Position numbers and translations under genes: made by a program. The notes below the pieces were generated by a model. That model worked only from the letters and a program-made list of their open reading frames with translations, did not search any database and was not told where the DNA came from. Below, one piece after another: positions 19,495 through 61,167 of a stretch of DNA of 64,000 nucleotides; the first letter of the stretch is position 1; the number at the start of each line of letters is the position of its first letter. The DNA lies in IMG/VR virus record IMGVR_UViG_3300033155_000850; one strand, written 5' to 3'. The DNA comes from an uncultured virus (IMG/VR IMGVR_UViG_3300033155_000850). Lineage: Duplodnaviria > Heunggongvirae > Uroviricota > Caudoviricetes.

Positions 19495-19886
19495 TAGTTG
19501 ATTGGGCTAAAAAATATATAGGTATGGAGTATAGGTTAGGTCATACTGGGCCTAATTATTTCGACTGTTGGGGTGTAGTGGTTTGGATATACAAACAAGA
19601 ATATGGTATAAATATAAATGAAGGGATATATTATATCACTAAAGAAGACAGAGCTATACAGTTAAGAAAACACATAGGATCATGGATTAAAGTTACAAGA
19701 CCACGACCTGGTGACGGAATACTATTTATGGTAGGAGGTAAACTTCCACATTGCGGTATTTATGTTGGAGATGGTAAAATGTTACACTCATTAGACGAAC
19801 GTATGTCGTGTATTGAGCGGATTAATTCACCAAAATGGAAACCTCGTCTTGAAGGATATTATAGGTACAGCTCGAGTACTAGCTAA
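19491..19886 (+). CDS. NlpC/P60 tail-tip peptidase (gpK-like)
   Basis: FDCWG, PGD..LF, HCGIY.G.G.MLH. Confidence 0.9.
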   Translation: MIVDWAKKYIGMEYRLGHTGPNYFDCWGVVVWIYKQEYGININEGIYYITKEDRAIQLRKHIGSWIKVTRPRPGDGILFMVGGKLPHCGIYVGDGKMLHSLDERMSCIERINSPKWKPRLEGYYRYSSSTS

Positions 19887-22800
19887 ATCTAACTTATTTA
19901 GTGAAGATGTTATGGAGGCATTCGTTCCTTCAGGCATGTCTATACGTGAAATAATTGGAAATGAATTCGATAATTACGCTGTTACTTTAAATAGTGATAT
20001 TATTTCTGCGGATAATTGGGCTACTACGTTTGTAGATACTTTCGATGTATTGACTATAGTTAAAGTACCTGCTGGCGATGATGAAAATGCATTAAAACGT
20101 TTCATATTGGTTATAGTAGTATTGATAATTGCATACTATGCTGGACCAGCTGCCGCCGAAGTAATTGGTGGTACCGCTGAATTTTGGACGTCTGCAATAG
20201 CGTTTGTAGGTACAGTGGTAATAAATTTAGTATTACCACCTTTAATGCCAGATGTGACTGATGGAGCCAGTAAAAGATTAAATTCATTAACAGGTACTAG
20301 AAACTCATTCGCTCCATTTGAACCCATACCTATTTTATACGGTAAACATAGACTGTATCCACCTATAGCCGCATTTCCATATACAGAAGTTATAGGTACG
20401 GATCAATATTTACACATGTTATACTGTGTAGGTTTGGGTACGTATGCTATAGATTCCACTACTATGAAGATAGGGGATACTCCAGCGTCTGAATTTGAAG
20501 GTGTAGATATAGAAATTACTGATCAACCACTTCAGCCAGATATATTCGAGTTACAACAGGCTTTAGTATTTAATCAAGATGCTACACCTGGAGATGAGTT
20601 TACTCGTACCACTGCAGCAGATACAGATACTATAGGGGTTGATTTTGTATTTCCGGGCGGACTAGTAAAAATAGATCAAGAAGATGGCGAAGAAAAACAT
20701 GTACAAATACATTTCAGTGTAGATTTTAGAATATCCGGAAGTGCAGATCCATGGGTTAGTGTTAATACTCTTGACTGGGAAGAAGATACGAACGGCAGGC
20801 TATTAATTGTTGGAGGGTTAAATAATATAACCACTACAGGTAATCCACCTATTAAATCGTCTTCTTACGGTTCTTTACGTGTATCTGGAGTAAATTCTGA
20901 TTGGATCGCAGTAACTAGTAGAAGTAGAGACCCATTGAGATCCGGTTTTACGTTTAGTCCAGCAACTAGGGATACTTGGGACATACGAATAATTCGTCAA
21001 CAGACTAATATAATGGGTGGAGCCGCTGTTACTAGTCTTGACGATATATGGATAGAGATAGCTTCATCTGTAGCATGGACAGCCTTACGAAGTACTAAAT
21101 ATGAAGTAGGTGTATCTATTGGGCCGAATATAGCTACTTTTATAAAGGTACGTATTAGGGCTACTGATCAATTGAACGGTATTATAGATTCATTTAATCT
21201 TATTGCTGAAAAAGAGTTACGTACTTGGGATAAAACAGGTCAAACATTTACTGCGCCCGCAGCTACTAGGGATCCAGCGTGGGCTTATTTAGATATATTA
21301 ACTGGTTTAGGCAACGCTCGTCCTATCACTAACGAGAGTAAATACATATGGCTAGATGAATTATCTGATTGGGCTACAGCTAATGCTTCAGGTGGTAGAT
21401 TCTATGATGAAGTTGTAGACTATCGTACATCTGTATTTAGTGCATTAACTATAGCTTGTGGAGTAGGTAGAGCGTCATTATCTACTAGAGATGGTAAGTG
21501 GACGGTTGTATTAGAACAAGCATCACCTACCCCTGTTCAATTTTTTACGCCAAGAAATAGTTGGAATTTTAGCTCTGTTAAACGATTTGTTAATTTTCCA
21601 CACGCATTTAAAATACGATTCAATGCTGAAGACTCTGATTATCAAGAAGATGAGGTAATAGTATATGATGATGGATTTAATGTGGGTAATGCTGTTGATT
21701 TTGAAGTTATACAATTACAAGGTATAACAGATTCAGATCAAGCTTGGCGTACAGGTAAATATACTTTAGCTGCATTAAGACTTAGACCAGAAATATATAC
21801 ATTTAATTCTGACATAGAGCATATAGTAGCTCAGCGTGGTGATCATGTATTAGCATCTCATGATATACCTCTTTGGGGTAATAGTTACGGTCGTATTAAG
21901 GACATATCTGGTAATGTGGTAACTACGGATGAATCTGTCGATTTGGATGGAGGTACTACATATGTAATGCGTATACGATTAGATGACGGTACATCAGTCA
22001 TAGAAAATCTAACTTTACAGGGCGGGACTGATATATCTAGTCATACGTTTACTCCGTCTATACCTACTGGGGTACAAATCGGTGACCTATATATGATAGG
22101 TGAAGTAGGTTCCGAAACCCAGGAGTTGGTTATAATTTCTGTAGAACCTACTAAGGACCTTTCAGCTAGAATTACGTGTGTGGACCACGACCCAGCTATA
22201 TTGACAGCGGATGATGGAACACCTCCAGTATTTAGCCCTAATATAACTTTACCTATAGATCCTACTCAATTAAGACCGGCACCACCTTTTAACATTACTG
22301 CTAATAGTGATCAAATAGTACATACAGTCGATGGAGCAGGAACATTAAATCCACGTATAGCTGTTAGTTGGGACTTACCTTCTAATTCTAGTGAACGTTG
22401 GCCTGCACTAAGAGCCGAAATTAGATGGAGAGAATATGATGTAACTGTAAACAGCGGAGATGCTGGTACATGGGTTGTAATATTTATACAAAATTCTTTT
22501 CAGGGTTTTGGCATAGTAGAAGATATAAATGTAGGGGTTGAATATGAGATTCAAGTTCGCAGTACTACAGAATATGATATACCTTCTTTATGGAGTGGCG
22601 CTATATTACACACTGTAGGTGGAGCTACTAGACTACCTCCAGCTGTGGACAGCGTAGTTACTAGTGATGAATTTGGAGGAGTAGAAGTAGATGTAGATTT
22701 TACGTCCTTAATAACTCGTACGGGTTCATATCTAGAAATAGCATATGGAACTGTAAATGATAGAAATGATGGTGGAACAGTTATACGACCATTTCCAATA

Positions 22801-25800
22801 CCTAGAAATTTAACAGATATAACCACATTAAAGTTTTTTCTTCCATTTACTAATACTACTGCTAGGTATTTTTGGGCTAGATTAGTAGATATATATGGAT
22901 CTCAATCCACATGGATTCCATCTTCTGCTACAGCGGGAATACTCGGTACTCCTAAACAAGCAGTAGCTACTTTTTACTATATAAAAGCTATAGCTGGTAC
23001 AGCCATAAAAAATGGATCCGGTCAATTAACTGTAGAAGCTCATAAAGTAGATGGAGCTAGTGATATATTACTATCTTCTGGAACTATACAACTGTTCGAT
23101 CCGGGTAATAATATAGTTAATGTGGCTAATGGCTATGTAACTGGATCAGACGGATATACTGGTATACTGGATTCTGGAGATATAACTTCTGAGATAGTTA
23201 TTACTCTTAAAGACGGTGCTGGCGGAACAGTTCTAGATACTATAACACTGGTAGATATAGATGATGGGGCTGACTCTGTTTATGGGTATATAGAAGCTGT
23301 ATCTACACTAGCTTGGGTTAGAGGTCCAAACAACGGAGCTTGGGAACCTCTAGCTACATCTACGAATCTAGATGTTACTATAGTTAAAGGTGGTACTGAT
23401 CAGGCTAGATGGTCTAGACAGATAGATAGAGCCAGTGACGGTCTATTGACGGATGGTGGAGCGACTAATCATGTTAGTACTAATTTAAATACGTCAACTA
23501 TAACACCTACAGTTACTGTATCTGGAAATATCGTAAATGTTCAGTATGACTATTTATCCGGTAGCGATGTAGTTAGTGTATCAGAATCAGTTCATTCTGT
23601 TTTAGGAGGAGCTGGGGCTCAATTTTACTATATAAAACCAATAGACGGTACGGCAATTAAGAACGGATCGGGTCAATTAACTATAGAGGCTCATAAAGTA
23701 GAGGGTTTAGTAGATACATTACTTTCTTCAGGTACAATACAGTTATTCGATCCAGGCGATAATATAGTAAATGTTGCCAATGGTTATGTAACTGGGTCAG
23801 ACGGATATACAGGTATATTAGATTCAGGTGATATTAATGGTGACATAGTAATTACTCTTAAAGATGGTGTCGCAGGTGCTGCATTAGATACTATAACGTT
23901 AGTTGATGTAACCGATGGATTAGATTCAGTTAGTGGGTATATAGAGCCGGAAAACGGTCTAGCTTGGAGACGTGAGGGTACTGATGGAGCCTGGACACCG
24001 TCTCAATTAACTACTGATCTTGATGTTACATTCGTTCAAGGGGGTTCAGATGTAGCGCGTCAAGGCTATAGACTAACCCTTAATAGTACTGATGGGATTA
24101 TAACGGGTACTGTCACAACACACCCGTTATCAGACCTTAATACGTCTCGTATAACTATAACACCTACTGGATCTGGTAGTACTACGGTTTCAGTCAAGTT
24201 TGACTATACTTTTTCCGGTGATGATGCATCGGTATCTGAAACAGTGTTTTCTGTTACAGGCGGTGGTACCGGATTACCTGGTCAATTTACATCATTAGAT
24301 TATGATGATTTAGATACTACACAACTAGCTGCTGGCCAAAGTAGATATGCTATGTTGACAGATGTAGGCGACAATACTACTGGTAGTCAAAATAATTTTC
24401 ATCTTACTGATGGTATATTGATTAATAAGAAAGATATAGATGGAATTAACTATGCTCTTTTGTTTAGTGAAGTTAGAGAAGGGGACAGAATCGTATACAA
24501 AATATCTAATACTAGATGGTTTATCTTTAGTGTAGTTACTACGTTCATTACAATTGGTACAGGTGTAACAGAGGCGTATAAATTTGGAGTAGTATTAGAT
24601 GATTCATTAGATCCAGACCCTACAGCAAATATTTCTACAGCCGCTGGTACTGATGTAAAATTTGAAATATATAGATCACAGTGGGATGTAGATCAAACCG
24701 CTGTTATAGACCCAGACTTTGATCGTACTCCGATAGGTGCTAGTTCTATACCTATGCAATTTACTGATAACGGAATCGCTCCTGATATAATAGATTTCGA
24801 TCATTCTTTTCCAGGTAATAGCACATTTTGGTACGCTACACAAGAAATGGTTGCTAACGGTAGTACGGATGTTAGCCCTGTTTATACCCCAGCCACCGTG
24901 GTTGTAGAGAGTAACGGTGTAAATAGTTCAAATTCCGTAAAAATGAAACTTGGGCCTGTTAGTGCTACGGGTGCTTCAGATTATGTACAGTCTATAATAT
25001 TAACCCATCTTCACAGATTTAGGTCTAATTCAGGCGAATTTAATATAAAGATTAGAGCCAGAAACCAGTATACAGCTCTTAGTTCTGTATTTATAGAGAT
25101 ATACGGTTATTCAGAAGCTCGTAGTACTAGTATTATAGATACAGCTAGTGCAACACTCCAAATTCCAGCTAGTACTACTACTTGGACGGAATATAGTTTA
25201 AAGACCTTTAACGGTACATCAAATCCATCTGCCCAGTATTGGGAAGTTACTATTAGAATGGTCGATATAGAGAGTATACCGTATTCTTCTGGAAATGGTA
25301 ATCTATATGAAATGGAGTTTGACTCTATATTTGTAGATCAAATAATTAAAGATTTTGGTGAAACAGTCATAGCCAGTAAGGTAGAATCTGGATTAGTTCC
25401 AAAAGCTTTGTCTTCTGACGCCTCTAAATATTTACAAGGCGATGGTACGTGGAGTGATCCGCCTGGAGGTTCAGCATCAGATTCTTTCAAAACCCATACT
25501 GTTACAGATACTGATTCAGGATATTCATGGTCTGCTACAGGGTCTATTATAGCGGATTCTACTACGGATATTTTAACTTGGGTTTCTGGTAATGGTATAA
25601 ATATAGATGCTGATTCTGCTAGCGATGCTATTCGTATAACCCTTGGATCACATAATCACTCTGCTGTAGATATTACATCTGGAATTTTAGATGTAGCTAG
25701 AGGTGGTACTAATATAGGGTCATATGCTATAGGTGATATATTATATGCGTCAGCTTCAGGTGTATTATCTAAATTAGCGGTAGGTACTGATACTCACGTA

Positions 25801-28800
25801 CTAACTTTATCCAGTGGATTACCTGTATGGGTTGCACCCTCAAGTGGTTATACTCATCCTAATCATTCGGGTGATGTGACTTCTGTAGGGGACGGTGCAC
25901 AGACTATTGTTATAGATGCAGTCACTTATGCCAAAATGCAGAATGTAATTGCTGATAATAGAATTCTAGGTAATATAGCTGGAGCAGGTGGGATAGTTGC
26001 TGAATTAACCGCTACTCAAGTTCGTACTCTAATTAATGTTGAGGACGGTTCTACAGCAGATCAAACCGCTGGAGAAATCGAGGCAATTGTAAGTCACGAT
26101 AATCTAGTTGATTTTGTCTCGCAAGAACATATACGTTGGGATTTAACTGGTGCCGAAGATGTTCATGCTGATAGATTCGGTGGTGGAGCTAATTTTGCAG
26201 ATACAGTATTAGATAGACCTAGATTCAGTGATTTCGCTACTAAACACCAAGCTGTGGCTGCAATAGCTACTACAGTTATAAGTTATTCAGCAGGTCAATC
26301 AGTCGCTCTTACTATGGGCGCTGTTAATATAAGTACCTTGACCATTAATAGTTGGCCTGCTACCGGTTGGCGTGGTGACATGGAAATAGAAATAATCCAA
26401 AACACTACGCCTCGCACAATCAACTGGTCAGGAGCCAATGTTGAATGGGTAAATGGGGTTCCTCCAGATTTATCGACTGCATCCGAACGCTATATCATAC
26501 ATCTATCTACACGTGATAGTGCTACTGTAGTTATCGGTTCATATGCATCAGATAGTTCGATAGGTGTAGTATCAGTATTTGGTCGTAGCGGTGCTGTAAT
26601 TGCTTTACAAGCTGATTATGATTCATTCTTTTTAACACCCGCTGAAGGTGATGCTGCTTACTCCTTGCTTGGTCATATTCATGATGTATTCGATAGAGCA
26701 ACATCTGTTTTATCCGGTGCAAATGTATTTAGTAATATAGTTGTCACAGATGGTATAGTAACAGCTATTGCTACTCGTGCATTAACTGCTAGCGATGTAG
26801 GGGCCGCAACATCTGGACATTCTCATGTTCCTGCAGATGTAACTTTTGCAGCAACTGATCGTTTCTTAGGTAGAGATACAACTGGTGGCGGTGCTGGTGA
26901 GGAATTAACGGCTGCAGCTGCTCGTGCTATTTTAAACGTTGAAGACGGTTCTACGGCAGATCAGACTTCCATTGTTGGTATTACAGGCACTAAAGCTCAA
27001 TTCGATATTGCTGTTACGGATGGTAATATTGTGTATGTGGGTGGAGCATTCCATGATGGATTCTCAGACTTTGTGGATAATGAACATATAGATTGGACTG
27101 CTGCAGCTGCCGGTATTATACATATAGATAATTACGTTGAAAATGTACCCACGTCTTTGAGTACAGGTACACGAACTTCAATTGCTTACGGTATTACTAG
27201 CGATGGTGGTGCGGATGATATTTCTCTTTTAGAGGCTACTACTAGTCTTGCGGGTTTATTAGGTTCTGCAAAGTGGGATGAAATTGTAGCTAATACCTTA
27301 AAAATTACGAATGCAAATCATACCGGTGATGTAACTGGAGCAACTGTTTTAACTATAGGAGCCCTTAAAATATCTACGGGTATGGTTCAAATTGATGCAA
27401 TTACTTATGCCAAGATACAGAATATAGTAGACGATGATAGAATTTTAGGCAATGTGGCTGGAGCAGGTGGAATAGTAACTGAACTCACTGCTACACAAGT
27501 TCGTACTATGATCAATGTAGCAGATGGAGCTACAGTAGATCAAACCTCCATAGTCGGTATTACAGGCACTAAAGCTCAATTCGATATTGCTGTTACGGAT
27601 GGTAATATCGTGTATGTGGGTGGAGCATTCCATGATGGATTCTCAGACTTTGTATCTCAAGAACATATACGTTGGGATTTAACTGGGGCTGAAGATGTCC
27701 ATGCTGATCGTTTTGCTAACGCTCCCGTTCAGTCAGTATTCGGACGTTCATCTACTGTCATAGCTGTAATCGGTGATTATGCCGCTATAGCAGAAATTTT
27801 TACAGTAAAACAAACATTTAAAGCTAGTACAACAGGGTCGGCTAGTATTAAGATACAAGAAGGTGTCGCCCCTACTACCCCAACCAATGGTGACATGTGG
27901 GTAACCGCAGCAGGTGAATTCTTTGCACGTCTTAATGGGGTAAGTGTCGATTTATCACTTGGCGCGGTTGATTCAGTATTTGGTAGAAGTGGGGCGGTTG
28001 TTGCGACCATAGGAGATTACGCCGCTATTGCAGAAGTCTATTCAGTCTTACAAACATTTAATGCTGGAATAAGCATGGCCGATTCGTTATTGGACCGTGC
28101 GCGATTAGGTGACTTTGCAATCAAGCATCAAGTGGTTGCTGCGATTGCTACAACTGTTATTAGCTATAGTGATGGTCAATCAGTACTATTGACGATGAGC
28201 GCGGTCAACATAGATACGTTGACACTAAATAATTGGCCAGCGACTGGGTGGCTCGGGCAGTACGAAATTGAAATTGCACAGGGAGCAACGCCACGCACTA
28301 TTACATGGCCTGGTGTTATTGAATGGGTAAATGGAGTTCCTCCAGATTTATCGACCGCGAATGAGACATACATAATTCATCTGTCGACGCGGGATAATGG
28401 TACAGGAATTATCGGATCATATGCCGCTGACAGTTCGGCGGGAGTCACTTCGGTATTCGGTCGATCCGGTGCGGTCGTCGCGCTACAGGCTGATTATGAT
28501 TCGTTTTTCCTGACACCGGCAGAAGGCGACGCGGCCTATTCGATGTTGAGTCATACCCACGACAGAATTTCTGTATTTGACAACAGGGCCGCAGGAGATG
28601 TAACGCCAGACGGTCTGCCAGATAAGACTATATATGCGACGTTTACCGACGATATCGTTGGAAGTGTAAATGTATGGGATGCAGTGATTAACGTAGCAGG
28701 TTGGGCCACTGGATACTCTGCTTGGCAGTTGATGTCAAATTCCGGAAATGATGGTGACGGTACAGATAGTTTGTATTTTAGACATGGCCAGACTACAACG

Positions 28801-29427
28801 TGGGGTGCGCTCCGTAAGATTTGGGATGACTCTCACTTTGATATCGCTGACTATACTCCGACATCTGGACTGAGTATTACTAATTGGAACACAGCTTACG
28901 GTTGGGGCGACCATGCTTCCGGTGGGTACGCGGATGCCGGGGGCGCTTTCCATGATAGTTTCTCTGACTTTATATCACAAGAACATATTAGATGGGATAA
29001 TACTGGCGCTGAAGATATTCATGCGGATCGATTAAGTAGTGGCGCCAATATGGCGGATTCTATACTGGATCGTCCACATATTAGTGATTTTGCTATCGAA
29101 GATCAAGTCGTAACAGGTATAGCCAGTACGACTATCAACTACAGTTCCGGTCAATCTGTTCAATTAAATTTAAGTGCTGCAAACATAACTACGTTAACCT
29201 TAAGTAATTGGCCGGCAACAGGTCGTTTAGGGCAAATAGAGATAGAGGTTACACAAGGGTCTACTCCTCGTACTGTAGCATGGGATACAGCGTTAACAGG
29301 GACTATTGATTGGGCTGGCGGAACTGGGCCAGATCTTAGTACAGCCAATGGTAAATTTCTAGTTATGTTACGAAGTCGTGATGCTTTAACTAGTATCATA
29401 GGGACATTTACGGAGAACTGTAGCTAA
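19813..29427 (+). CDS. Giant tail-tip/central fibre protein (gpI/gpJ-like, Fn3-like region, repeated C-terminal modules); start uncertain
   Basis: PIPILYGKHR, V.IRATDQLNG, .PAWAYLD.L, FTPRNSW; 3204 aa with internal duplications. Confidence 0.88.
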   Translation: MSGLIHQNGNLVLKDIIGTARVLAKSNLFSEDVMEAFVPSGMSIREIIGNEFDNYAVTLNSDIISADNWATTFVDTFDVLTIVKVPAGDDENALKRFILVIVVLIIAYYAGPAAAEVIGGTAEFWTSAIAFVGTVVINLVLPPLMPDVTDGASKRLNSLTGTRNSFAPFEPIPILYGKHRLYPPIAAFPYTEVIGTDQYLHMLYCVGLGTYAIDSTTMKIGDTPASEFEGVDIEITDQPLQPDIFELQQALVFNQDATPGDEFTRTTAADTDTIGVDFVFPGGLVKIDQEDGEEKHVQIHFSVDFRISGSADPWVSVNTLDWEEDTNGRLLIVGGLNNITTTGNPPIKSSSYGSLRVSGVNSDWIAVTSRSRDPLRSGFTFSPATRDTWDIRIIRQQTNIMGGAAVTSLDDIWIEIASSVAWTALRSTKYEVGVSIGPNIATFIKVRIRATDQLNGIIDSFNLIAEKELRTWDKTGQTFTAPAATRDPAWAYLDILTGLGNARPITNESKYIWLDELSDWATANASGGRFYDEVVDYRTSVFSALTIACGVGRASLSTRDGKWTVVLEQASPTPVQFFTPRNSWNFSSVKRFVNFPHAFKIRFNAEDSDYQEDEVIVYDDGFNVGNAVDFEVIQLQGITDSDQAWRTGKYTLAALRLRPEIYTFNSDIEHIVAQRGDHVLASHDIPLWGNSYGRIKDISGNVVTTDESVDLDGGTTYVMRIRLDDGTSVIENLTLQGGTDISSHTFTPSIPTGVQIGDLYMIGEVGSETQELVIISVEPTKDLSARITCVDHDPAILTADDGTPPVFSPNITLPIDPTQLRPAPPFNITANSDQIVHTVDGAGTLNPRIAVSWDLPSNSSERWPALRAEIRWREYDVTVNSGDAGTWVVIFIQNSFQGFGIVEDINVGVEYEIQVRSTTEYDIPSLWSGAILHTVGGATRLPPAVDSVVTSDEFGGVEVDVDFTSLITRTGSYLEIAYGTVNDRNDGGTVIRPFPIPRNLTDITTLKFFLPFTNTTARYFWARLVDIYGSQSTWIPSSATAGILGTPKQAVATFYYIKAIAGTAIKNGSGQLTVEAHKVDGASDILLSSGTIQLFDPGNNIVNVANGYVTGSDGYTGILDSGDITSEIVITLKDGAGGTVLDTITLVDIDDGADSVYGYIEAVSTLAWVRGPNNGAWEPLATSTNLDVTIVKGGTDQARWSRQIDRASDGLLTDGGATNHVSTNLNTSTITPTVTVSGNIVNVQYDYLSGSDVVSVSESVHSVLGGAGAQFYYIKPIDGTAIKNGSGQLTIEAHKVEGLVDTLLSSGTIQLFDPGDNIVNVANGYVTGSDGYTGILDSGDINGDIVITLKDGVAGAALDTITLVDVTDGLDSVSGYIEPENGLAWRREGTDGAWTPSQLTTDLDVTFVQGGSDVARQGYRLTLNSTDGIITGTVTTHPLSDLNTSRITITPTGSGSTTVSVKFDYTFSGDDASVSETVFSVTGGGTGLPGQFTSLDYDDLDTTQLAAGQSRYAMLTDVGDNTTGSQNNFHLTDGILINKKDIDGINYALLFSEVREGDRIVYKISNTRWFIFSVVTTFITIGTGVTEAYKFGVVLDDSLDPDPTANISTAAGTDVKFEIYRSQWDVDQTAVIDPDFDRTPIGASSIPMQFTDNGIAPDIIDFDHSFPGNSTFWYATQEMVANGSTDVSPVYTPATVVVESNGVNSSNSVKMKLGPVSATGASDYVQSIILTHLHRFRSNSGEFNIKIRARNQYTALSSVFIEIYGYSEARSTSIIDTASATLQIPASTTTWTEYSLKTFNGTSNPSAQYWEVTIRMVDIESIPYSSGNGNLYEMEFDSIFVDQIIKDFGETVIASKVESGLVPKALSSDASKYLQGDGTWSDPPGGSASDSFKTHTVTDTDSGYSWSATGSIIADSTTDILTWVSGNGINIDADSASDAIRITLGSHNHSAVDITSGILDVARGGTNIGSYAIGDILYASASGVLSKLAVGTDTHVLTLSSGLPVWVAPSSGYTHPNHSGDVTSVGDGAQTIVIDAVTYAKMQNVIADNRILGNIAGAGGIVAELTATQVRTLINVEDGSTADQTAGEIEAIVSHDNLVDFVSQEHIRWDLTGAEDVHADRFGGGANFADTVLDRPRFSDFATKHQAVAAIATTVISYSAGQSVALTMGAVNISTLTINSWPATGWRGDMEIEIIQNTTPRTINWSGANVEWVNGVPPDLSTASERYIIHLSTRDSATVVIGSYASDSSIGVVSVFGRSGAVIALQADYDSFFLTPAEGDAAYSLLGHIHDVFDRATSVLSGANVFSNIVVTDGIVTAIATRALTASDVGAATSGHSHVPADVTFAATDRFLGRDTTGGGAGEELTAAAARAILNVEDGSTADQTSIVGITGTKAQFDIAVTDGNIVYVGGAFHDGFSDFVDNEHIDWTAAAAGIIHIDNYVENVPTSLSTGTRTSIAYGITSDGGADDISLLEATTSLAGLLGSAKWDEIVANTLKITNANHTGDVTGATVLTIGALKISTGMVQIDAITYAKIQNIVDDDRILGNVAGAGGIVTELTATQVRTMINVADGATVDQTSIVGITGTKAQFDIAVTDGNIVYVGGAFHDGFSDFVSQEHIRWDLTGAEDVHADRFANAPVQSVFGRSSTVIAVIGDYAAIAEIFTVKQTFKASTTGSASIKIQEGVAPTTPTNGDMWVTAAGEFFARLNGVSVDLSLGAVDSVFGRSGAVVATIGDYAAIAEVYSVLQTFNAGISMADSLLDRARLGDFAIKHQVVAAIATTVISYSDGQSVLLTMSAVNIDTLTLNNWPATGWLGQYEIEIAQGATPRTITWPGVIEWVNGVPPDLSTANETYIIHLSTRDNGTGIIGSYAADSSAGVTSVFGRSGAVVALQADYDSFFLTPAEGDAAYSMLSHTHDRISVFDNRAAGDVTPDGLPDKTIYATFTDDIVGSVNVWDAVINVAGWATGYSAWQLMSNSGNDGDGTDSLYFRHGQTTTWGALRKIWDDSHFDIADYTPTSGLSITNWNTAYGWGDHASGGYADAGGAFHDSFSDFISQEHIRWDNTGAEDIHADRLSSGANMADSILDRPHISDFAIEDQVVTGIASTTINYSSGQSVQLNLSAANITTLTLSNWPATGRLGQIEIEVTQGSTPRTVAWDTALTGTIDWAGGTGPDLSTANGKFLVMLRSRDALTSIIGTFTENCS

Positions 29428-57076: not shown

Positions 57077-58592
57077 GGAGAGGCGACGGTAAGAATGCAC
57101 TTCCGTACTGACAATGGTAGACGTACTACTCAGTCCTCTGGTGAGTTACACTGCTTTTATCGAGGTATGTTAAAGCCAGAAAGCAGACTTAGCAATCTGC
57201 CCTCTTTTAAATGTAGTCATATCCGGGTTGACCTCCGGTAGGTCATATGACGGCTCTCAAATCAAGAGAGAGTGCATGCGAGGTTTCGCCTTTTAGGGGC
57301 CGGCTCGAATCTAGCCGTTTATAGGGTTTATATGCTCGCGATCCTGTATGAATTGATATGATTAAGAACTATATTAACAGTGTCCGGGAAGGAGCAACCG
57401 TCCGTAGGATAGACCAACTCCACATACGAGCATTTGAGCGTAGTAAGGTCGTTTGAAGATTACGGGATACATTGTTATAAAGATAGCCACTACCATCAGA
57501 TAGAGCTGTCTTCAGGGTAGGTAGACTTGCCTGTTACGAGCTACCTGAGCTTTGGTTCATAGCGATAAAAGCGAATGAACAAGAGGTGTTCTATAGAATG
57601 GCGGTTTGCTCACCCTTTCCGCTTAGTAGAAGGCCCACGCGCTACCGAGAAATGCGTTAAATCGGGAGTCGTTGACATCGACAAAAGTCCTGGTACTGGC
57701 CTAATAAGTCGGTATCAGGCAGATTTTCGTTGGTACCTTATGGCTGTATGATGTTATGTTAGTAAGTATTTCGGACGCGGGTTCGATTCCCGCCACCTCC
57801 ACCACAATGGGGGTGATCGGTTTCGACGGTGTACAGGAAGCATGATGGACAGCACGCTTGGTCTCGTAAAGACTACTAAAACAATCGCAAACGATGAAGT
57901 TTACGATCTGCCGTTGGCATTAGCTGCGTAAGCAGTTAAGCTAATAGGCCGGGTCAGGGTCGCCTGGGAACAGAAGGCCCATTGAGCACTAAAACTGCCG
58001 AAAATATCGGTGAAACTCCGATACTCTCGCAATGATGGCCTATAAGGCTAGTGGGGGTTCGTTTAATACTATAGACTTAAGCTATAGGTGAAGACACCGG
58101 CATTTATTAAAGAAATCAAACTAGGCGATTGCTTCTGCCCAGAATCACTAGAATGATAGACTAGTAGTATCCAAACAAGTACAGGGCAATGTGCATATGT
58201 GGAGAGACGCTAGCCATTCAGGAGTCGCATAGCGTCATCTGTTTGAAGACCTAGCGGCCCAGGTCTAGAGGGGCCGCCCCTATTTTCGGGGACGTTGATA
58301 ATACTTGTCAACGCCCTACTGAAAGGGTATGGTTAGCCCGAGCGCAGAAGTAACTGGCCACCATGTCGCCGGATGGATTATGGTCTTATACGGTGGAGGG
58401 GTTGTATTGCACCTGTCTTACCTGTCGTAAGAAGCAATGCCGAGGAGTGTTGGCTACTCAGCTCTTTTACTCAATGATGTAGCTGCGAAATGTGCGCTGT
58501 GGCGTATACATATATAGATCGATACTGTGATATTTTTTATTCTTTTACAGATCGGTCGACGACCCTACTAGCCACAGATAGTAGGAGTCGTT
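57077..58592 (+). ncRNA. Array of structured non-coding RNAs (about 1.5 kb, no ORF of 60 aa or more)
   Basis: Raised GC, many hairpins and pseudoknots separated by short AT linkers; includes tmRNA. Confidence 0.75.
57740..57980 (+). ncRNA. ssrA: Circularly permuted (two-piece type) tmRNA; tag ANDEVYDLPLALAA*
   Basis: T-arm GCGGG-TTCGATT-CCCGC and CACCTCC-A-CCA (ends 57804) precede the 5' end GGGGGTG (57809) with G3.U70; TTTCGAC D-region; tag ORF 57887-57931; outer boundaries approximate. Confidence 0.93.
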
Positions 58593-58605
58593 TAAAGGGG
58601 TAAGT

Positions 58606-59946: not shown

Positions 59947-60115
59947 TTACTTGACGATTAAATTGGAGGTTAAGAAATTGAAAAGATAATCGTTGCAGTA
60001 CTAGCTCCAATAATGATTGGGCTAGCGGCCTATCTAGCGTATACGATCGGCCTACTCATGGTGGCATTTATGATGATATATGCCATATTGTATGAAGGAA
60101 ATAGAGGTAATTGAA

Positions 60116-60634
60116 ATGACTGAAGAAACAGCGGTTGAAGCCGCACCAGTACCTTCGGGTCCTGCAGATGGTATCGCTCGAGGTCGCATGCACGCAGCAT
60201 TAGTTTTTGCGATTAAGTTTAACTCAGGCGAAGCCAAAGACGGTGATCTTGCACGTAAGTATGCAACGACACCAGGTAAAATCAACGACATCCGTAAAGA
60301 TCGTAACTTCAAGTACGTAATTGCTACTATGGCATTTACGGCCGGTGAAGTTCAGGAAGCTAAAGATCGTTTTGCAGCTTCCGTCAATGCGGAAAACAGC
60401 ACGGTTGCTGAAGATCAGCGTCCTGTAGTTATCGAGGATGGTAATACCGCTCTTGATGGCGTACCTAAGACTGAGGGCGACAGTCAGTTGTCTAATGCTC
60501 GTAAGGCTGATCGCAAGCCTCGCGGCAAGTCAGGTGATGAAGCTGAATCTGAAGCAGGTGGCGAAGCCACAGCAGAAGCTGCTGAGGTAGATGCAGCCAG
60601 TGATGACGACCTCGACGGTCTATTGGACGAGTAA
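60116..60634 (+). CDS. Acidic protein with HTH-like segment
   Basis: GAGG RBS; LARKYATTPGKINDIRK; terminator follows. Confidence 0.6.
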   Translation: MTEETAVEAAPVPSGPADGIARGRMHAALVFAIKFNSGEAKDGDLARKYATTPGKINDIRKDRNFKYVIATMAFTAGEVQEAKDRFAASVNAENSTVAEDQRPVVIEDGNTALDGVPKTEGDSQLSNARKADRKPRGKSGDEAESEAGGEATAEAAEVDAASDDDLDGLLDE

Positions 60635-60684
60635 TCGTTCAGCCGCTGGTACACCGGTTAAAGTGTACTAGCATTCACCATGCA

Positions 60685-60708
60685 ACGGGGGCTTCGGCCC
60701 CCGTATTT
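60685..60708 (+). terminator. Hairpin terminator
   Basis: ACGGGGGC-TTCG-GCCCCCGT. Confidence 0.75.
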
Positions 60709-60713
60709 AACTG

Positions 60714-60799
60714 AAGTATTTTGATGGTAATCGGTTAGAGCCGCTGTACAGCATTAAAAAGTCGGGAGACGCTACTCCGATTACCTTCAAAAATACTTT
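60714..60799 (+). ncRNA. Long-stem hairpin RNA candidate
   Basis: AAGTATTTTTGA-TGGTAATCGG pairs with CCGATTACC-TTCAAAAATACTT. Confidence 0.55.
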
Positions 60800-60801
60800 A
60801 A

Positions 60802-60923
60802 CGCGGGATGGCGGAATTGGTAGACGCGCCCAAAGATCTGGGTATAGTGTATAATCCGCGGATTATATGGTTTTTCTAGATAAAACAGCTATTTTGCAGG
60901 TTCAAGTCCTGCTCCCGCTACCA
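60802..60923 (+). tRNA. Atypical 122-nt tRNA-like RNA (no canonical anticodon loop)
   Basis: Acceptor CGCGGGA/TCCCGCT-A-CCA, D-arm GGCGGAATTGGTAGACGC, T-arm GCAGG-TTCAAGT-CCTGC. Confidence 0.8.
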
Positions 60924-60936
60924 AATCGGGTGATGT

Positions 60937-61167
60937 ATGTGGACTAAAAAATCTTACGCTACTGCAGAAGATAATCATAAGGCTGGTCGTTGGACAATTA
61001 GTAATGGCCATGTGGATTTTGATATACACCTAACAATAGACGGCTCTCATGGTACAGGCTACATAGTATCACCAGCAGAAGCCGATGCTTATGCAGATCA
61101 TATCTTACGTAAGCTAAACGAACAGGACTCAATCGAGTTTCGCCCAATACTGCCCCAGGACCTATAG
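60937..61167 (+). CDS. Hypothetical protein
   Basis: ORF after the tRNA-like gene. Confidence 0.55.
   Translation: MWTKKSYATAEDNHKAGRWTISNGHVDFDIHLTIDGSHGTGYIVSPAEADAYADHILRKLNEQDSIEFRPILPQDL

Follow-up and report, generated by a model that had tools for sequence, protein, structure and literature searches.

A 122-base tRNA-shaped element at positions 60802–60923 (+ strand) of the window, the 64 000-nt stretch of phage DNA analysed here, belongs, on sequence comparison, to a family of phage RNAs that is widespread and uncatalogued and that takes its frame from a class II tRNA-Leu. Members have the Leu-type D arm, U48, the T arm and an acceptor stem of 7 bp in common, and the middles of 33–119 nt that lie within this frame are unrelated. 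The element is no isolated chimera; pattern searches gave 75 distinct relatives.

The element lies on the coding strand, inside a 302-nt gap between ORFs at 60080–60634 and 60937–61167. Its 5′ acceptor strand, CGCGGGA (60802–60808), pairs with TCCCGCT (60913–60919) except at 1:72, where C1 stands opposite U72. It is followed by U8, G9 and the Leu-type D arm GCGGAATTGGTAGACGC (60809–60827, the arm itself occupying 60811–60827), with A14, A15, G18G19 and A20a. Downstream are an anticodon-arm-like hairpin, GCCCA-AAGATC-TGGGT (60828–60843), with a 6-nt loop and no U33; a variable insert of 52 nt (60844–60895), the last base of which is U48 (60895); the T arm GCAGG-TTCAAGT-CCTGC (60896–60912); and, after the 3′ acceptor strand, A73 (60920) and an encoded CCA (60921–60923). 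Within the insert, ATAG (60844–60847) and CTAT (60889–60892) stand on either side of a palindromic hairpin TATAATCCG/CGGATTATA (60850–60867) and a second hairpin, GTTTT-TCTAGAT-AAAAC (60870–60886). All of these features are on the + strand. The acceptor with its 1:72 mismatch, A73 and CCA, the 6-nt loop AAGATC without U33 and the perfect T arm are present by sequence, just as the initial annotation had listed them.

The window is a segment of a tailed phage, encoding terminase, portal, major head protein, tape measure, DNA polymerase, primase and ligase, as well as genes related to dCMP deaminase, thymidylate synthase and carbamoyltransferase. Its tail module contains a single ORF of 3204 aa (19813–29427), for which there was only a weak Phage-tail_3 match. 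Another record (G001) represents the same phage (portal 100% identical) and does not include the element region. ARAGORN, run on the whole 64 kb, predicts no tRNA and one tmRNA only; the element is the sole tRNA-like gene, and the phage has no tRNA cluster in this window. The tmRNA is permuted (two-piece, alpha-type), encodes the tag ANDEVYDLPLALAA and is located at 57693–57983, 2.8 kb upstream of the element. Rfam confirms the ARAGORN prediction (120 bits on RF04321 and 84.9 bits on RF01849). The sequence of about 1.5 kb around the tmRNA (57080–58600) contains no convincing ORF and gave no Rfam match; the 577 nt on its 3′ side (58024–58600) are more stably folded than shuffled sequence (z −3.35, 0/100 shuffles as good), and the 611 nt on its 5′ side are not (z −1.25).

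A strongly structured leader predicted by folding (60645–60800, + strand) precedes the element. It comprises a hairpin at 60645–60672, a GC hairpin at 60685–60704 and a long hairpin at 60712–60800, which stops one base short of the 5′ end of the element. The leader region 60636–60801 has an MFE of −65.9 kcal/mol (z −5.98), which none of 200 shuffles equalled. On the other side, the next ORF (60937–61167, + strand, 76 aa) starts 16 nt past the discriminator. Neither of the two neighbouring proteins (60080–60634 and 60937–61167) has relatives in viral contigs or a family in PHROG or Pfam.

Tests against tRNA models indicate that the element is not a decoding tRNA. The Rfam tRNA model (RF00005) gives 13.4 bits (E 9.1) over 60867–60913 only, below the gathering score of 29 bits, and ARAGORN at a lowered threshold is forced into a His(ATG) call with a 28-nt intron. 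A decoding tRNA would have a 5-bp anticodon stem and a 7-nt loop containing U33; the AAGATC loop is of 6 nt and lacks U33. The proposal that this is a non-decoding, tRNA-shaped RNA therefore agrees with the absence of an ARAGORN call, of a 7-nt loop and of U33. Initiator tRNA-fMet is characterized by a CAU anticodon and by three G-C pairs closing the anticodon stem. The element has the unpaired 1:72 (C1·U72) together with G2-C71 and C3-G70 as in an initiator, but not the CAU anticodon with the three G-C pairs, its stem being GCCCA/TGGGT with a 6-nt loop. The LeuRS identity set, A73, A15:U48, G18G19 and A20a, is present in full by sequence. According to PMC9976931, these determinants suffice for the E. 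coli LeuRS, which does not require the anticodon and continues to charge a tRNA-Leu from which the anticodon and variable arms have both been removed.

The 28-mer at the 3′ end of the element (T arm to ACCA) is identical in three viral contigs, where it forms part of ordinary tRNA-Met(CAT) genes, and one of these genes (L001) also has the 5′ strand CGCGGGA. The resemblance to an initiator acceptor is therefore genuine, since a phage tRNA-Met(CAT) gene has the identical acceptor, T arm and ACCA. The label 'initiator-type' nevertheless holds only in part, because C1·U72 is not kept in the four nearest relatives (L004, L009, L010 and L015, among which 1:72 is C-G in two, U-A in one and A-U in one), and because genuine tRNA-Leu(CAA) likewise carries GGCGGGA/TCCCGCT. 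A degenerate pattern for the 3′ end matched 95 loci, by eye almost all Met(CAT)-type tRNAs, and only one of these loci has a Leu-type D arm.

The 26-mer at the 5′ end (acceptor and D arm) was found in one viral contig (L004), where it forms the start of an element of 147 nt that has the same frame, C1 paired with G72 and a middle different from, and longer than, that of the window element. The phage carrying it and the window have neither portal nor polymerase in common, so unrelated phages carry this frame. When metagenome contigs were scanned with a 23-mer, 11 loci were obtained. These include normal tRNA-Leu(CAA) genes with the acceptor GGCGGGA/TCCCGCT, a tRNA-Leu(UAA) with a 213-nt group I intron (L008) and three aberrant elements (L009, L010 and L015), none of which has a proper anticodon loop. 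The D arm is identical in the ARAGORN-called tRNA-Leu(CAA) genes L005, L006 and L011–L014, which bears out its initial assignment as Leu-type, and its sequence also matches within annotated cyanophage tRNA-Leu genes. BLAST of the region against 50 697 phage records returned no long match, only D-arm or T-arm pieces of 21–30 nt. One metagenome contig (L007) contains two tandem partial 5′ halves of tRNA-Leu(CAA) followed by a complete copy; in each partial copy, foreign sequence of about 65 nt interrupts the anticodon loop, which looks like repeated integration at this site.

A gapped pattern (D-arm 15-mer, 42–72 nt, T-arm 13-mer) matched 85 loci in viral contigs, corresponding to 69 distinct sequences. 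With the elements found earlier, the family comprises 75 distinct sequences, mostly from viral contigs. When the same pattern was applied to one genome each of 185 579 prokaryotic species, only 13 loci were found, of which about 10 are real members, nearly all in Bacteroidota. A cultured phage, Sulfitobacter phage phiCB2047-B, also carries a member, which is unannotated; it is located at about 28.5 kb (L197:1496–1589) and scores 57.9 bits with the covariance model R1 described below. Of 13 near-complete phage genomes of 41–121 kb, nine carry a single copy, as the window does, and the other four carry two, so one copy is the norm. In three contig fragments, six or seven members are arrayed within 1.5–2.7 kb. 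The acceptor AGTCAGG/CCTGACT is common to the members of these arrays, their middles differ, and in some of them the D loop contains an additional hairpin. None of the titles and abstracts returned by literature searches describes the family; PMC10690425 (2023), on viral structured RNAs from IMG/VR, gives generic tRNA-like candidates, which may include members.

The D stem and most of the T arm, including the T loop, were fixed by the search pattern, so their invariance is no evidence of conservation. Most of the 75 sequences were found with the gapped pattern, which did not include the acceptor stem; this stem is fully paired in 69 of the 75, with many different sequences. In an alignment of 73 rows, all seven acceptor pairs covary, with changes in both strands, and paired cells make up 98.8% of the total. 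The first stem pair of the T arm also covaries. Over the whole structure there are 199 double-sided cells, against a shuffled mean of 42, and sliding the partner strand by 1–3 columns lowers the pairing from 99.5% to 34–40%. U48, the partner of A15, is conserved in more than 90% of the family and A73 is present in 58/75, while an encoded CCA is found in 4/75.

A covariance model (R1) was built from the 73-row alignment, in which the window sequence is itself a training row. R1 gives the window element, as one of its own training rows, 76 bits (E 3.6e-19) over the full length of the model, within the range of 53–90 bits of other members. In the 64 kb the element is the only strong match, the next (17 bits) being the acceptor piece of the tmRNA. 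In total, R1 gave 155 matches over 96 loci, the lower-scoring ones including ordinary tRNAs.

A canonical 5-bp/7-nt arm at the anticodon position is present in only two of the 75 sequences. One of these (L169:1355–1459) has the loop CTGTTTA and the anticodon GTT, corresponding to Asn; the ORF that adjoins it (L169:531–1349) matches class II D/K/N aminoacyl-tRNA synthetases (PF00152, E 2.6e-14). Genes of class I size that resemble tRNAs were also seen beside long family members, at L126:34–102 and L116:870–939 (the latter also in L145, L155 and L185), with the tetraloop TTGG or the 6-nt loop GAAATA as 'anticodon' loop. ARAGORN labels such genes tRNA-??? with two-letter anticodons, and in one case the acceptor stem is common to both neighbours. 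In Pseudomonas phage vB_PF_Y1-MI, a gene annotated as 'tRNA-Gln' (L198:1500–1582) combines G73 and the anticodon TTG with a Leu-type class II body, in which the variable arm is long and the D arm differs from the Leu motif by one base.

Six pairs of elements have inserts that are 79–97% identical, beside 300-nt flanks at shuffle level (55–63% vs 56–61%). The acceptors of the same pairs differ at up to 10 of 14 positions and are still paired. In one pair there is a compensatory change in the main stem of the insert (GTGTGA/TCACAC vs GAGTGA/TCACTC). Identity of inserts between flanks at shuffle level suggests that the insert is the selected part of the family RNAs, the basis for this being the six other pairs, since the insert of the window is without a relative. 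Together with the compensatory change, this conservation argues against a pure spacer and against pure decay. The initial view that simple decay does not account for the element gains from these inserts, which are conserved between otherwise unrelated contexts, and from the covarying acceptor stems. The inserts may be conserved units that have passed from one frame to another, the probable route being recombination in the D and T arms, which do not vary.

Most inserts have nothing in common with one another, which fits a spacer role as well as a diverse cargo. Most end in a hairpin closing 2–3 nt before U48, the site of the long variable arm in class II tRNAs. Sequence motifs show only moderate enrichment (GTAAG in 14 of 66 inserts, GTGAG in 11 and GTGGT in 10). 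By inspection, the inserts are short and rich in stop triplets, and their conservation is not that of coding sequence. The insert of the window (60844–60895) has no match beyond chance in the window or in any of the fetched loci, and a 22-mer from it has no exact match in viral contigs. It is shared by no relative, so its junction has to be judged from folding.

The proposed three-way junction, one possible fold of the element, has a free energy of −34.1 kcal/mol vs an MFE of −39.3 kcal/mol. In the thermodynamic ensemble, the ATAG/CTAT helix has a probability of about 0 and the two insert hairpins 0.13–0.16, whereas the anticodon-like hairpin (0.77–0.88) and the T arm (0.98–0.99) are both robust. 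The branched variable arm of the initial annotation is thus present as hairpin and ATAG/CTAT sequences, but it is not the fold favoured thermodynamically. In a competing fold the palindrome is paired with the strand of the D stem, a stem whose probability is 0.03. The 68-nt middle (60828–60895) folds somewhat better than its shuffles (z −2.2). By sequence, all four frame helices of the window element are intact. The element is among five of 73 aligned elements with an unpaired 1:72; this mismatch, the competing fold and the low probability of the D stem leave room for decay of this particular copy.

Across the family, an ORF of at least 50 aa on the same strand starts no more than 40 nt downstream in 32/80 elements, and an upstream ORF ends no more than 40 nt away in 21/80. 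The 45 nt upstream of the elements are more structured than control sequence (mean −8.9 vs −6.1 kcal/mol; Wilcoxon P=6e-5). Clustering of the flanking ORFs revealed no gene family that recurs beside the elements across the family, and no transferase, SmpB-like or synthetase gene recurs there. In a Pfam search, 108 representative neighbour proteins included products of replication, recombination and terminase genes, as well as an RNA ligase and a fragment of a class II synthetase, each seen once. No integrase was found among these 108 proteins or among the scanned proteins of the window.

The element resembles class II tRNA-Leu (RF00005) in its 7-bp acceptor, A73, identical D arm, A15:U48 and T arm. 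It differs in the lack of a 5-bp/7-nt anticodon arm and of an anticodon, and in its variable region of 52 nt. Rfam scores many family members as long tRNAs above its gathering threshold (33–42 bits); apart from these generic tRNA matches, no other Rfam family was matched at the elements. YrlA RNA (RF02553), as described in PMC4201824, is similarly non-decoding, keeps the D/T elbow and is handled by tRNA enzymes, and in both RNAs another helix takes the place of the anticodon arm. Unlike the element, YrlA is circularly permuted, has an acceptor closed by a loop, has both ends within a Ro-binding stem and is adjoined by the Ro60 gene (PMC4201824). A permuted module, running from a T arm through a short loop-closed acceptor to a Leu-type D arm, was observed in Caulobacter phage CcrColossus (L196:1468–1527); it lies just upstream of the 'RNA-binding protein' gene gp139, and there are three weak YrlA matches further upstream.

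The species 1 and 2 RNAs of phage T4 (rnaC and rnaD; NC_000866) are stable phage RNAs of 120–140 nt, as the product of the element may be, and are sited with tRNA genes. Homology to them was considered and rejected: R1 scores 21.5 bits at the T-arm end of rnaC, the level of an ordinary tRNA, and does not match rnaD, and neither RNA has a Leu-type D arm. tmRNA similarly combines a tRNA-like domain without an anticodon, which is chargeable as that of the element may be, with a middle that is not tRNA; it differs from the element in its alanine identity, its lack of a D stem, its pseudoknots and its tag reading frame. In the t-elements of plant mitochondria the tRNA shape is a processing signal and is not used in decoding, and in the engineered 'tRNA scaffold' it is a display frame. 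In these two systems, as may be the case in the family RNAs, the tRNA shape is a handle for processing or stability. The t-elements come from different organisms and the scaffold is artificial; no sequence relation to the element is claimed.

The explanation that we prefer, and to which we give roughly an even chance, is that the element encodes a non-decoding RNA on a tRNA frame, which would be matured and stabilized by host tRNA enzymes, could probably be leucylated, and has the insert as its working part. The frame would consist of the 7-bp acceptor, the Leu-type D arm, A15:U48 and the T arm, with a lineage-specific insert replacing the anticodon and variable arms. We infer from these features that RNase P and the 3′ end/CCA machinery of the host would cut the RNA from the phage transcript and that the tRNA elbow would stabilize the excised product. 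Such an RNA would be unable to read codons, and may display the insert, as its working part, on the tRNA frame. Leucylation by LeuRS is probable as well, since none of the known determinants of the bacterial enzyme is missing. The conserved parts correspond to the needs of RNase P and the 3′-end machinery together with the LeuRS identity set, and it is for this reason that the explanation is favoured.

The match to the LeuRS identity set (A73 in 58/75, U48 in more than 90%) would also suit an RNA that acts through its leucyl ester as a non-decoding mimic of Leu-tRNA, be it a decoy, a LeuRS/EF-Tu sink, an aminoacyl donor or a minimal tmRNA-like rescuer. The resemblance of C1·U72, with G2-C71 and C3-G70, to an initiator acceptor points in the same direction, as does the permuted tmRNA 2.8 kb upstream in the same phage; a tmRNA is also found beside a member in L150. 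However, A73 is absent in 17/75, the 1:72 mismatch is absent from the four nearest relatives, and no gene for a transferase, an SmpB-like protein or a synthetase recurs beside the elements. A role in charging only would also leave the conservation of the inserts as units unexplained, and we regard it as possible, if on balance unlikely. Alternatively, the tRNA shape might serve only as a cleavage signal for RNase P and RNase Z, between mRNAs or in trimming them, the excised RNA itself being functionless. The window element occupies the space between two genes on the coding strand, and the next start codon follows after 16 nt, as would be expected of such punctuation. Also consistent with it are the proximity of downstream ORF starts (32/80) vs upstream ORF ends (21/80), the structured 45 nt upstream (P=6e-5) and the restriction of family-wide conservation to parts that RNase P needs. 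The asymmetry between upstream and downstream is modest, however, and could reflect compact genomes. RNase P is not known to need the Leu-specific features of the D loop, which are strictly retained, and inserts that are 79–97% conserved beside flanks at shuffle level, with a compensatory change in an insert stem, speak against a functionless product. We consider a role confined to cleavage distinctly unlikely.

Decay of a tRNA gene in this one copy, for example a functionless tRNA-Leu with an insertion and a damaged anticodon loop, would explain the 1:72 mismatch, the 6-nt loop, the insert without a relative and the 13.4 bits on the Rfam tRNA model, and clearly truncated tRNA-like genes do exist in phage contigs (L024, L106 and L110). 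Yet the four frame helices are intact, the R1 score of 76 bits is within the range of other members, the element is the sole tRNA-like gene in 64 kb of a phage with no tRNA cluster in this window, and the same design recurs in 75 distinct elements with covarying acceptor stems; we consider decay highly improbable. Three further proposals are, even taken together, scarcely credible: a Y-RNA-like partner of Ro60, an intron-containing tRNA that is spliced to a decoder, and an attP site for a host tRNA-Leu. YrlA RNAs, according to PMC4201824, are present in phages and imitate tRNA in their D and T arms; there is a weak YrlA-like match beside a member in L179, and the permuted Leu-D-arm module of CcrColossus adjoins its 'RNA-binding protein' gene. 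The element, however, is not permuted, Rfam YrlA (RF02553) has no match in the window, and TROVE was above cut-off in 0/50 carrier records, including 0/13 near-complete genomes, and in none of the Pfam-scanned window proteins. An intron is suggested by L008, whose tRNA-Leu(UAA) has the same 5′ exon, but ARAGORN with introns allowed makes 51 calls on 73 elements with 34 different anticodons, and this candidate was rejected. Group I introns are of about 200 nt or more, and inserts of 33–119 nt are too short for them; the 52-nt insert of the window matched no intron family, and the intron of L008 is of 213 nt. The attP proposal was likewise set aside, there being no integrase among the scanned window proteins or the 108 representative neighbour proteins.

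Returning to the non-decoding RNA on a tRNA frame, it can be extended to a more ambitious model, in which the family consists of modular, aminoacylatable phage effector RNAs. The frame would be chargeable by LeuRS, the exchangeable cargo would be swapped by recombination at the D and T arms, and the cargo would target the leucyl-RNA, or the host tRNA-binding machinery that it recruits. This model is speculative, and in our estimate quite improbable; if it were true, members might act, for example, as a minimal trans-translation-like rescuer, a targeted aminoacyl donor or a decoy.

The usual explanations for tRNA genes in phages are codon usage and the evasion of anticodon nucleases, and the RNAs of this family can serve neither purpose. 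That the family is kept, mostly as single copies, in many unrelated phages indicates that the tRNA shape is used outside decoding. In standard annotation, members are either overlooked or wrongly entered as unusual tRNAs to which arbitrary anticodons are assigned. Should the inserts prove to be cargo, nature would have in this family its own version of the engineered tRNA scaffold, and the family would be a source of small structured RNA domains.
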